Source of the DNA: Christensenellaceae bacterium
GTDB lineage: Bacteria > Bacillota > Clostridia > Christensenellales > Borkfalkiaceae
Assembly (NCBI GenBank): GCA_045603725.1
Contig: JAZUMP010000056.1
Location: 4,702 to 68,701 of the forward strand
Length of the DNA: 64,000 bases
Direction: 5' to 3'
The notes beneath the pieces are model-generated. The model saw only the letters and a program-made list of their open reading frames with translations, did no database searches and was not told where the DNA came from. Position numbers and translations under genes: made by a program. Numbering within the stretch: the first letter of the stretch is position 1; every line of letters starts with the position of its first letter. This document shows positions 53,171 to 56,330 of this stretch, piece after piece.

Positions 53171-53626
53171 CTAAAAAATAATTGCTTCGTTTATTTTAGC
53201 GATTTGTGGCATTGAAATTTTAATTTCTTTACCATTTACCGCAATAGTTATACTGCCACCGTCATACTCTTTTAAAACGCCTTCAAAATACTTTTGCCCG
53301 TTCATTGGCGCGTAAAGTTTAACTTCTACCATTTTGCCAATGCGCTTTAAAAAATCCCTTTCAGTTTTAAGCGGTCTATCAAGACCCGGACTTGAAACAT
53401 TTAAGGTGTATGGATTAGGATATGGGTCAAACTCGTCAAGCGGGTCGGAAATAAGATTGTGAAAAGCCTCGCAACTATCTAAATCTACGCCACCTTCTTT
53501 ATCGATATAAATAGTAAGTTGCGGGTTTTTAGACATTTTAAAAGAAACCTCAACAATCTCTAAATTTAAACTTTCAGCATACGGCGTTAAAAACGCTTCA
53601 ATTTCATTAACTGGTTTTGCTTTCAT
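53171..53626 (-). CDS. rimP: Ribosome maturation factor RimP
   Basis: ...LNVSSPGLDRPLK... is present, and the gene lies upstream of nusA. Confidence 0.9.
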   Translation of the reverse strand: MKAKPVNEIEAFLTPYAESLNLEIVEVSFKMSKNPQLTIYIDKEGGVDLDSCEAFHNLISDPLDEFDPYPNPYTLNVSSPGLDRPLKTERDFLKRIGKMVEVKLYAPMNGQKYFEGVLKEYDGGSITIAVNGKEIKISMPQIAKINEAIIF

Positions 53627-53654: not shown

Positions 53655-53689
53655 ATAAAGAAATTTGAGAGTGGCTAACCACTCTCAAA
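53655..53689 (-). terminator. Intrinsic-terminator-like hairpin in the rimP-nusA leader; a possible attenuator
   Basis: tttgagagtgg-ttag-ccactctcaaa followed by TTTCTTTAT on the minus strand. It lies downstream of the 53717-53745 promoter. Confidence 0.55.
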
Positions 53690-53716
53690 CTACAAGTAAC
53701 ATCTTATAACGATAAT

Positions 53717-53745
53717 ATTTTAACATATAATGTTAAATATATCAA
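53717..53745 (-). promoter_or_regulatory. Promoter TTGATA-N17-TAAAAT for the rimP-nusA-infB operon
   Basis: On the minus strand the hexamers are at 53745-53740 and 53722-53717. Confidence 0.5.
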
Positions 53746-53761
53746 GCGTTTTTTACTAATT

Positions 53762-55300
53762 TTAAATATCTTTTAAACTTTTTTTACCTTTAACTAGTTC
53801 TAAAAGCATTTCTGCAGTTGCTAAAGAGTCGGATAACGCCCTATGGTGATTAAAGGTAATACCAAAATAATCGCAAACGTTATTAAGTTTATGATGCTTT
53901 AGCGACGGCAATATTTTTCTAGACAAATAAAGAGTATCTACAACTTCGTTTTTTAAAAGGTATCCTAAGTTTTTACCAGCGTTTTTTAAAAACCTAAAGT
54001 CAAATTCCGCATTGTGTGCAACGAAAACTGTATTTTCTATAAATTTAAAAAAGTCTGGATAAACCATATCTATAGTCGGACTATCTTTTACAAGTTCATC
54101 ACTAATACCCGTCAATTCTACTATTCTTTCGGGAATAGAAACTTCAGGGTTGACTAGCGTTTGGAAACTTTCAGTAATTACACCATTTACAATTTTAACA
54201 ACGGCAATTTCAGTAATTTTATCATACTGAGCGTCAGTTCCCGTAGTTTCAATATCAACGACTGAAAAAGTCCTATCTGTAAATTCAATAGGAAGTCCTT
54301 TATCAACGTTAAAGAAATCTTCCTGTTTAGTGCTAGTAATATTTTCCGGAAAAACCAAAGAGTATTTTTCAGGCGCCTTTTTAGAAGGTTTTTCTTTAGG
54401 CGTAAAATTTTTAGGGAATTCACATAAATGATAGCCTTTTATTGTCAAACTTGGAGCGCCGTTAAACAGTTCGTTCTCACAGCGCATAATAATTTGGCTT
54501 CCAACCGAAATTTTCTCAAGTTTTTTAAGTTTTTGCTTATCGCTAGTAAAAAATCTACCCGTAATTTTACCGGTTTTATCGTCTATAGTTATAAGGTTAT
54601 AAGGCTTGCCGTTTTTAGAAATTTTATTTTCTATTTGATTAACGACTCCGGCAAAATATATAGGACCTATTCTATCCTGACCGTCGGATATGTAAATTGC
54701 CGTATCGTATAAAGCGTCGTCGCAAAACTTTAATACGTTAGTTACTTTTATATATCTTAACGTAGAGTCTTCAAGTTCCCCAAAATTCATACTTTCAACG
54801 TCGTACGTAGGGCTTTCGGTTTCGTCGCTAACAATCTTTATCGAGCCTACGAAATCATGAGCGTAAGACCTAGATAAATAGTTACACATTTTATCAAGTT
54901 CTGAAGTTCTTAAAAAGTAATCGCTTAAACTATCTATTAAGTTAAGTTCAAAAACTATTTTTTTATTTACTGATAAAATTTTAATATTTTCATCACTAAT
55001 TAAATGCGAAATATGAAAACATTTCTCTTTTATATAATCTATAATTACACGGCTTGCAAGTTCTTTATCGCATATAGATTTTTTTATTAAAAGATTAATT
55101 TTGGTTAAACCTTCTAGCCTTTCGTTTAAAGATTTTATAATAAAATTTTTACCTTCGATACTAACTGCAACGTCGCTTATCGCTTCAACTTCTAAAATAT
55201 TAGAATCTTCAAAAAAGACTGCACTTTTAAGGCGCAAATCTCCTAAATTATTATCAAACGATTTTAAAGTATCAAACAGTAAATCACAAGCGTTTTTCAA
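53762..55300 (-). CDS. PolC-related protein containing only the PolC N-terminal domain, OB fold and DEDDh 3'-5' exonuclease; no PHP or polymerase core
   Basis: The exonuclease motifs are FSVVDIETTG, VAHNAEFDFRFL and HHRALSDSLATAE. The OB-like segment is IYFAGVVNQIENKISKNGKPYNLITIDDKTGKITGRFF. By eye, both align closely to the corresponding B. subtilis PolC segments. The protein is 512 aa. Confidence 0.75.
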   Translation of the reverse strand: MKNACDLLFDTLKSFDNNLGDLRLKSAVFFEDSNILEVEAISDVAVSIEGKNFIIKSLNERLEGLTKINLLIKKSICDKELASRVIIDYIKEKCFHISHLISDENIKILSVNKKIVFELNLIDSLSDYFLRTSELDKMCNYLSRSYAHDFVGSIKIVSDETESPTYDVESMNFGELEDSTLRYIKVTNVLKFCDDALYDTAIYISDGQDRIGPIYFAGVVNQIENKISKNGKPYNLITIDDKTGKITGRFFTSDKQKLKKLEKISVGSQIIMRCENELFNGAPSLTIKGYHLCEFPKNFTPKEKPSKKAPEKYSLVFPENITSTKQEDFFNVDKGLPIEFTDRTFSVVDIETTGTDAQYDKITEIAVVKIVNGVITESFQTLVNPEVSIPERIVELTGISDELVKDSPTIDMVYPDFFKFIENTVFVAHNAEFDFRFLKNAGKNLGYLLKNEVVDTLYLSRKILPSLKHHKLNNVCDYFGITFNHHRALSDSLATAEMLLELVKGKKSLKDI

Positions 55301-56330
55301 TTTCTTTTATTTCCTTAACAAATTCTTCTTCTGCTAAATTAAAAGGCACTTTTTTATACACTTCACCCTTTTTAAATATAACGCAAAAATCTTTAGACCC
55401 TGCTATTCCAAGGTCGCAGTCTTTCGCTTCGCCAGGACCGTTAACAACGCAACCCATAACGGCTATTTTGAGTGGTTTTTTTATATCTTTTGTAAGATTT
55501 TCTATTCTCTCGGCAAGACCGATTGAATCGTATTCCGTTCTACCACAAGTGGGGCAAGAAATAATTTCAACGTAGTCTTTTTCAAGCCCAACCGAGCGCA
55601 ATATCTTTTTTGCAACGATAGGCTCTTTAATTGGGTCTGCAGTTAAACTTACCCTTATGGTATCGCCTATTCCCTTTAATAAAAGCGAGCCTATTGCAAC
55701 GCTACTTTTTATAATTCCATTTTCATAAGTGCCCGCTTCTGTAACTCCTATATGAAGTGGATAATTAGTCTTTTTAGATAAATACTCATACGCTTTTATA
55801 GTTAAATTAACGTCGCTCGCTTTAGTTGAAATAACTATATTTTCAACACCGTATTTTTCAAGCGCGTAAACGTTTTTTAAGGCGCTTTCAACGAGTGAAA
55901 TTTCATTTTTGCCGTACTTAGATAAAAATTCCTTTTCAATACTACCCGTGTTCGAGCCAACTCTAACAGGAACTTTGTACTGCTTTAAACAGTCCGCCAC
56001 CCTTTTAATGTTTTCTTCACTTCCAATATTACCGGGGTTAATTCTAACCTTATCAATACCGTTTTCAATAGACTTTATTGCTAAGCGATAATCAAAATGT
56101 ATATCGGCAACGAGTGGAACGCTAGTTTTAGATTTTATAATTTTTATTGCTTCAGCGTCTTTTTCATCTTTAACGGCAAGTCGAACGATATCGCAACCGT
56201 TTAATGCTAAAGCATTAATTTGCGATACTACTTCGTCTATTTTTTCGGTTTTAACGTTAGTCATCGACTGAACTAATACCCTTTCGCCACCACCGATATA
56301 TAAATTACCGATTTTAACTTTTTTCGTCAA
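55284..56330 (-). CDS. ispG: 4-hydroxy-3-methylbut-2-en-1-yl diphosphate synthase
   Basis: ...VRINPGNIG... is present, with the C-terminal cluster CPTCGR...GCVVNGPGE. Confidence 0.93.
   Translation of the reverse strand: MTKKVKIGNLYIGGGERVLVQSMTNVKTEKIDEVVSQINALALNGCDIVRLAVKDEKDAEAIKIIKSKTSVPLVADIHFDYRLAIKSIENGIDKVRINPGNIGSEENIKRVADCLKQYKVPVRVGSNTGSIEKEFLSKYGKNEISLVESALKNVYALEKYGVENIVISTKASDVNLTIKAYEYLSKKTNYPLHIGVTEAGTYENGIIKSSVAIGSLLLKGIGDTIRVSLTADPIKEPIVAKKILRSVGLEKDYVEIISCPTCGRTEYDSIGLAERIENLTKDIKKPLKIAVMGCVVNGPGEAKDCDLGIAGSKDFCVIFKKGEVYKKVPFNLAEEEFVKEIKEIEKRL

Follow-up and report, generated by a model that had tools for sequence, protein, structure and literature searches.

We analysed a 64,000-nt stretch from the genome of a Christensenellaceae bacterium (assembly GCA_045603725.1, contig JAZUMP010000056.1, positions 4,702 to 68,701), here called the window, with respect to a gene for a 512-amino-acid protein that appears to be a remnant of the replicase gene polC and that we call the mini-PolC remnant. 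It lies on the minus strand in the order ECF S-component, coaX, ispG, remnant, rimP, nusA, ylxR, ylxQ, infB, rbfA and nrnA. From the ECF S-component gene down to the remnant the reading frames overlap by 4, 4 and 17 nt, and a spacer of 135 nt follows before rimP. The stop codon of ispG (TGA, 55286–55284) sits inside the start region of the remnant, and an AAGGA ribosome-binding site is located about 11 nt 5' of its TTG codon. Homologous proteins begin at the equivalent residue of the alignment, which makes the TTG start credible. The first-pass annotation of the window had reported an intact reading frame with this overlap; both could be confirmed, and all sequence motifs it quoted are present in the translation. 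Pattern matches in the spacer before rimP comprise a promoter-like element (TTGATA-17-TAAAAT) and a terminator-like hairpin of 13 bp that has a T-rich tail. All coordinates are compiled in Table 1.

Table 1. Features of the remnant locus and related genes elsewhere. Positions refer to the window unless a contig (C) or locus (L) is named; f25 and f38 are two families of the same order.
Feature	Position	Strand	Description and basis
Mini-PolC remnant gene	53762..55300	(-)	512 aa, TTG start; open reading frame list, start context
N-terminal domain, residues 1–160	54821..55300	(-)	two tandem alpha/beta (KH-like) subdomains; hhalign vs PolC; AlphaFold2 pLDDT ~84–93
OB fold, residues 199–293	54422..54706	(-)	hhalign vs PolC 232–331; Pfam PF01336
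Linker, residues 294–343	54272..54421	(-)	in place of first PHP segment; cross-family alignment, hhalign
QEDFF, residues 326–330	54311..54325	(-)	candidate beta-clamp-binding motif (consensus QxxLF); translation, alignment
DEDDh 3'-5' exonuclease domain, residues 344–505	53786..54271	(-)	PolC type; Pfam RNase_T, PDB 2p1j
ispG	55284..56330	(-)	upstream neighbour; stop overlaps remnant start by 17 nt
rimP	53171..53626	(-)	downstream neighbour; leads rimP-nusA-ylxR-ylxQ-infB
Promoter-like site (53745–53717) and terminator-like hairpin (53691–53662)	53662..53745	(-)	remnant-rimP spacer; consensus scan, pattern matches only
f25 remnant orthologues	L178:3110-4567, L179:3120-4583, L180:2887-4389	(-)	catalytic residues replaced; N-terminal domain and OB fold kept
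f38 form (G062)	L169:1492-2838	(-)	448 aa, same ispG-rimP slot; one genome read
DnaE1	C53:16068-19652		1195 aa; NF005298 equivalog passed
Phage-type replication module	C50:1424-7139 + C38:1-3677 (loci L010, L011)		DnaB-like helicase, primase, RecJ-like exonuclease, DnaE-like polymerase

PolC is regarded as the essential and near-universal replicase of the low-GC Gram-positive bacteria and is a drug target (ibezapolstat). In eight genomes of the same order a full-length PolC (1397–1455 aa) is encoded immediately after ispG, with rimP-nusA directly downstream in the fetched stretch of five of them. The same slot holds a 508–534-aa protein in four other families of the order, and the comparison of the ispG-X-rimP arrangement thus covers 8 PolC-bearing versus 4 + 3 + 1 remnant-bearing genomes, the last two numbers referring to the families f25 and f38, respectively. 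The view that a 512-aa protein occupies the canonical polC position was thereby upheld. Judged by the sequence comparisons described below, the remnant descends directly and vertically from polC. Both PHP segments are gone together with the entire polymerase, and a short new linker joins the parts that were retained, namely the N-terminal domain, OB fold and DEDDh exonuclease. By the same comparisons the loss dates far back and took place a single time, in an ancestor within the Christensenellales.

The exonuclease gave the strongest matches. Pfam RNase_T covers residues 347–498 (E = 1.2e-38). Among solved structures the PolC exonuclease from T. maritima is nearest (2p1j, E = 1.6e-34), and the full-length PolC of E. 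faecium comes next (9qpc, E = 4.7e-25). The top NCBIfam model is likewise one for PolC, NF001688, which scores 180 bits against a cut-off of 873 bits and matches the exonuclease part only; a second PolC model, TIGR01405, reaches 164 bits (cut-off 1043). Generic models for a non-replicative DEDD exonuclease (178 bits) and a DinG-type exonuclease (167 bits) score almost as well, so that the exonuclease alone is no proof of a PolC ancestry.

Further evidence for this ancestry comes from the front end, whose likeness to PolC had previously been seen by eye. An alignment of 30 remnants was compared by hhalign to an alignment of eight PolCs from the same order (a profile of 1440 columns). Remnant residues 13–148 correspond to residues 20–158 of the PolC N-terminal domain (probability 94.2%, E = 1.1e-7) and residues 199–296 to the OB fold at PolC 232–331 (97.8%, E = 9.1e-13). 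The two matches are colinear, the next-best ones anywhere in the PolC profile have E values of about 0.25, and the homology goes beyond a generic DnaQ similarity. Other search methods detected less. The OB fold is found by PF01336 at residues 216–289 (E = 1.3e-5) with 25.5 bits, slightly below the gathering score of 27, and a HMMER profile run against the PDB places it on residues 264–330 of PolC 9qpc with just 9 bits. The Pfam models for the PolC N-terminus have no match in the remnant at E <= 1. When residues 1–300 were used as a single-sequence query, only remnants and never a PolC were retrieved from the genomes of relatives, and the 55 matches among 1.84 billion representative proteins, nearly all of 480–527 aa, include no convincing PolC. 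It is profile-profile comparison, and this method only, that indicates homology between the N-terminal domain and PolC.

A structure prediction agrees with this assignment. The AlphaFold2 model, built with 117 family members, has a mean predicted local distance difference test score (pLDDT) of 88.7. In it, a tandem of two alpha/beta subdomains is followed by an OB barrel and by the nuclease, and the confidence is low at residues 160–178 and 326–329 only. In the comparison with a PolC structure, which had been proposed as a check, the best match of the model in a Foldseek search of the PDB is full-length PolC (9qpc_A, E = 9.6e-19, 362 columns). Modelled alone (pLDDT 84), the N-terminal domain matches tandem BON, KH (NusA) and ring-building folds with weak E values of 1e-4 to 1e-2. 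On the basis of this model, the weak KH and BON matches fit the published description, in which two KH-like subdomains make up the PolC N-terminal domain (Timinskas & Venclovas 2011, as cited in PMC3919608 and PMC12926913). Neither half of a PHP domain is detectable in the remnant with Pfam or NCBIfam, and no palm, fingers or thumb segment can be detected in the protein, which ends about seven residues past the exonuclease domain. The absence of PHP and polymerase domains, recognized already from the translation, is therefore real at the level of these searches.

The linker between OB fold and exonuclease has no detectable counterpart in PolC. Local hhalign finds no similarity to PolC over residues 290–345. 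We considered the linker as a possible relic of the first PHP segment, because a forced global alignment pairs its LVFPE with VQAFPEA of PolC, but the local alignment finds nothing and we do not claim such an origin. Across the families the linker has three conserved motifs, C-EFP, Y-x-x-V-x-P and Q-x-x-[LF]-F. The last one is a clamp-like pentapeptide 10–15 residues N-terminal to the nuclease, QEDFF in the window and Q-x-x-[LFM]-[FL] in general; 108 of 117 family members show the pattern Q..[LFMIVA][FLY], as do 24 of the 25 sequences taken from 16 families. At residues 326–329 the pLDDT falls below 50 between confidently modelled domains, the sole such stretch of the linker. The consensus for binding of the beta clamp is QxxLF, and epsilon of E. 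coli bears such a motif (PMC12309361). The candidate in the remnant is, as predicted from sequence and model, a conserved pentapeptide in an exposed, flexible segment, as expected of a clamp-binding site. It would be a new acquisition, since the clamp motif of PolC itself is located at the lost C-terminus. The first-pass annotation had suggested a stand-alone proofreading or clamp-associated subunit, and the conserved motif lends support to this still inferential proposal.

The same architecture is widespread among relatives. Public data contain at least 120 clusters of full-length proteins of about 480–516 aa, down to 36% identity, some of them labelled as Clostridia or Christensenellaceae metagenome-assembled genomes from sheep colon and other gut samples. 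Within the genus, PolC is absent and the remnant present in 24 of 24 genomes. For a broader survey we drew 401 genomes evenly from 42 GTDB families of the order Christensenellales (NCBI name). PolC scores above the curated cut-off in 185 of them. The families split cleanly: 24 have PolC, 16 lack PolC and have a frame of remnant length (f1, f10, f12, f15, f16, f18, f20, f22, f23, f28, f30, f32, f34, f36, f40 and f42), and f25 and f38 are special cases. Of 150 listed matches, 149 fall within frames 266–714 aa long, nearly all of 500–560, which puts the remnant into at least 149 of the 401 genomes. PolC and remnant were never found together in one of the genomes surveyed. Of 289 genomes sampled from the class outside this order, 283 have PolC, and the six without it have no remnant either; these hold exonuclease-less forms of PolC, a fragment at a contig end, or are probable gaps. 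A survey of relatives had been recommended, and the occurrence in at least 16 families, together with the divergence of the clusters and the invariant catalytic residues described below, speaks against a recent truncation. A decaying polymerase pseudogene next to the remnant, which would have been a sign of such an event, was seen in none of the loci read. In the literature searched, including the surveys PMC3919608 and PMC12926913, the mini-PolC remnant is not described.

To place the loss, we calculated a gene tree from 494 columns of the N-terminal domain, OB fold and exonuclease, the parts common to remnants and PolC. It included 25 remnants from the 16 families and 24 PolCs of the order, and was rooted on 14 PolCs from other orders. 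All remnants group in a single clade (Shimodaira–Hasegawa-like approximate likelihood ratio test 100, stem length 0.91), which is nested inside the PolCs of the order (support 96). An independent tree from ispG and nusA also unites the remnant-bearing genomes, including those of f25, in one clade (93) within the order (98). Both trees come from fast searches, and in the gene tree the monophyly could be exaggerated by long-branch attraction. Domain boundaries and linker motifs are the same in all remnants, and PolC lacks these motifs. Taken together, trees, boundaries and motifs point to a single deletion event and vertical descent rather than to an ancestral unfused form.

All 117 family members, and all 25 sequences compared across families, have the five catalytic residues of the exonuclease (D349, E351, D434, H486 and D491) unchanged. 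The exonuclease is the best-conserved part of the protein, with a mean pairwise identity of 45–62% versus 18–31% for the N-terminal domain. As read from these alignments, the protein is under purifying selection. Family f25 deviates from this picture. In the three genomes from two genera that were examined, the orthologue has 485–500 aa, is found in the same ispG-rimP slot and is homologous to the remnant over its full length (hhalign 100%, E = 1.5e-48), but every catalytic residue of the DEDDh set is replaced and Pfam RNase_T has no match at E <= 1. Nineteen of 20 sampled f25 genomes are without a recognizable exonuclease match. As f25 is nested within the remnant clade of the ispG and nusA tree, the inactivation must be secondary. 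Family f38 differs in another way: in the one genome read, the protein consists of the N-terminal domain and an active-looking exonuclease, with a low-complexity P/Q-rich stretch in the position of the OB fold. Judged by this sequence, f38 seems to have lost the OB fold yet retained the exonuclease.

The finding raises the question, posed already in the first-pass annotation, which polymerase replicates this genome. The source assembly (G000; 1.55 Mb, 76 contigs, 93% complete) contains no full-length polC anywhere. Polymerase-core matches are limited to two genes. One codes for a DnaE1 that scores 1430 bits with the clostridial DnaE1 model NF005298 (cut-off 1260). The other, a second DnaE-like gene of about 1250 aa, is split between the end of contig C50 and the start of contig C38. 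We rejected it as a hidden replicase, since it matches the phage families phrog_405, phrog_12219 and phrog_7513 and adjoins genes for a DnaB-like helicase, a primase and a RecJ-like protein; the module is probably a phage or prophage that was binned with the genome. By gene content, DnaE1 is the only cellular C-family polymerase found and must be the replicase. DnaE1-only Clostridia had been noted before (Timinskas et al. 2014, PMC3919608). The assembly also contains dnaX. Two more small genes for DEDDh exonucleases were noticed in it, C11:22608-23192(+) with 191 aa and C46:16186-17283(-) with 353 aa, both below every NCBIfam cut-off.

To look for compensating changes, DnaE1 was compared among 11 remnant-bearing and eight PolC-bearing genomes. 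The PHP signature HHDHEHCDH, which serves as criterion for an "active" PHP domain (PMC12926913), is complete in all 19 proteins, and nearly all have an internal GQxSLF clamp motif that is conserved in both groups. As a separate observation, each of the 11 DnaE1 proteins from remnant-bearing genomes has an acidic and lysine-rich insertion of about 3–25 residues after KxIP (at about 487–503 in the source genome, shortest in f16) and a 4-residue deletion near the C-terminus. Both are absent from the eight PolC-bearing relatives (loci L190-L199 vs L182-L189). Going by this alignment, they may be a lineage marker or a co-adaptation.

What could the function of the remnant be? We rate it as slightly better than an even bet that the protein assists the DnaE1 replisome as a proofreading and accessory subunit tethered to the clamp, a PolC-derived analogue of epsilon. 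In this mechanism the remnant would act at the replication fork. Through Q-x-x-[L/F]-F in its flexible linker it would be hooked to the beta sliding clamp, as epsilon of E. coli is by the motif beside its exonuclease; the OB fold would hold single-stranded template, the N-terminal domain would touch another replisome protein, and the exonuclease would trim mismatched 3' ends passed on by DnaE1. Such proofreading in trans has been described for B. subtilis, where the PolC exonuclease corrects errors of DnaE and PolC binds DnaE physically (PMC5627055).

Several observations weigh against this reading. In all genomes compared, DnaE1 itself carries a PHP proofreading site that looks intact, so that a further proofreader is not obviously needed. 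The remnant ends right after the exonuclease and has no C-terminal polymerase-binding tail as known from epsilon. The published likeness of the PolC N-terminal domain to domain V of tau was not recovered when Foldseek was run against the PDB, which gave weak matches only. For the clamp gene dnaN (TIGR00663) the assembly yielded no match even at E = 0.01; three of four genus-mates checked have the gene, and its lack here is probably due to an assembly gap near the origin. Finally, the sequences from f25 mean that catalysis is dispensable in at least one lineage and that some other role is conserved. Together with the intact DnaE1 site, f25 makes clear that nuclease catalysis is not the whole story, and the module of N-terminal domain and OB fold probably has, as its conservation suggests, a role of its own.

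This leads to the most serious alternative, to which we give a minor but real chance: the remnant could be mainly structural, with the N-terminal domain and OB fold conserved, for instance, to couple DnaE1 to the clamp loader or to hold the single-stranded template, and with the exonuclease as an optional part. The full-length f25 orthologues, which have all DEDDh residues replaced, keep the slot and are nested inside the remnant clade, are what one would expect in this case, as is the PHP site of DnaE1. On the other hand, the invariance of the five catalytic residues throughout the other 16 families indicates selection on catalysis, it is the exonuclease and not the N-terminal domain that is best conserved, and f38 appears to have dispensed with the OB fold rather than with the nuclease.

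A 3'-5' exonuclease of DNA repair or RNA processing that is no longer tied to the replication fork appears improbable to us. Members of the family carry the NCBI label "3'-5' exoribonuclease" and otherwise generic source names, DEDDh domains have many roles, and the scores of the non-replicative DEDD and DinG-type models come close to that of PolC. However, the remnant descends from polC by position and by phylogeny, it retains the replisome-specific front end of PolC and has a clamp-binding-like motif, and its strict failure to co-occur with PolC in the surveyed genomes fits a replacement better. It is still far less probable that the remnant represents an ancestral exonuclease subunit from before the assembly of PolC. 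It has been speculated that Clostridia are close to the root of the C-family polymerases, and Clostridia with DnaE1 only exist (Timinskas et al. 2014, PMC3919608), but the remnant clade is nested among the PolCs of its own order with those of other orders outside, the ispG and nusA tree agrees, and PolC is nearly ubiquitous in the rest of the class. That the remnant is a pseudogene, a recently truncated gene or an assembly or binning artefact, as might be suspected for a fragmented and incomplete assembly, has a negligible probability in view of the same architecture in at least 149 genomes and at least 16 families, the intact frame, the invariant catalytic residues, the confident model and the lack of adjoining polymerase remnants in the loci read.

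About half of the sampled families in one gut-associated order have thus discarded the polymerase of PolC, while its front end and proofreader have long been kept separately. The PolC N-terminal domain was not resolved even in the cryo-electron microscopy structures of 2025. The remnant offers a handle on this domain, as it is kept here without the polymerase and in f25 also without nuclease catalysis. A further-reaching claim, which we consider possible but doubtful, is that the PolC module of N-terminal domain and OB fold has an essential replisome function of its own, independent of polymerase and exonuclease. If so, nature would have made a "polymerase knockout" of PolC in this clade and a double knockout in f25, and a PolC-type replisome could be rebuilt around DnaE1 with the front end still needed as an organiser. 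Should the remnant indeed be a proofreading subunit of the DnaE1 replisome, evolution would have reached a stand-alone proofreader of the epsilon kind by an independent path. Commensals of this clade would presumably also lack the target site of PolC inhibitors. A link between PolC and gene-strand bias has been reported (PMC11040001), for which the remnant clade is a natural test. The genome is still strongly biased by a crude and partly circular measure, as about 82% of the open reading frames on contigs >20 kb are co-oriented with the local GC skew. In the window, 57 of 64 greedy-called open reading frames are on the minus strand and the GC skew is uniformly negative.

Among known systems, full-length PolC is the parent gene. 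The remnant has in common with it the slot between ispG and rimP, the N-terminal domain and OB fold in the same order, and the DEDDh exonuclease. It differs by the lack of both PHP halves, palm, fingers, thumb and the helix-hairpin-helix motifs, and in place of the C-terminal QLSLF clamp motif of PolC it has the QxxLF-like motif in the new linker between OB fold and exonuclease. By its sequence it is not a member of the curated PolC families, because PHP and polymerase core are missing and the score is far below the cut-off. The complementary deletion is known from some Clostridia and Negativicutes, whose PolC has no exonuclease (Timinskas et al. 2014, PMC3919608); this is likewise a natural dismantling of PolC in the same class, with the polymerase kept and the exonuclease lost. 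We came across PolC-like proteins without exonuclease in other orders as well (L163/L168 in G477:C22, G707:C38:10243-12132, G497:C15; about 1090 aa in genus g238). DnaE1 of Bacteroidetes carries an exonuclease fused to its N-terminus (Timinskas et al. 2014, PMC3919608), which illustrates that fusions and separations of C-family polymerases and DnaQ-type proofreaders have occurred repeatedly; there it is a fusion and here a separation, and lineage and linker are unrelated.

A further comparison is that with epsilon (DnaQ), the separate proofreading subunit of E. coli-type Pol III. Like it, the remnant is a stand-alone DEDDh exonuclease in a genome with a DnaE1 replicase and has a clamp-type motif adjoining the nuclease, and it passes the cut-off of the DnaQ domain model TIGR00573 (114.7 vs 71.5 bits). 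It stays below the cut-offs of the epsilon equivalogs, for example TIGR01406 (108.8 vs 222.7 bits). In contrast to epsilon it is of independent origin, having been cut out of PolC, it has an N-terminal extension of 340 residues composed of N-terminal domain and OB fold, it is without the C-terminal alpha-binding tail, and its motif lies N-terminal instead of C-terminal to the nuclease. Going by this comparison it is not an orthologue of epsilon, given the missing polymerase-binding tail and the independent origin. The most fitting class for the remnant is that of stand-alone exonuclease subunits of the DnaQ type, in this case with a front end derived from PolC.

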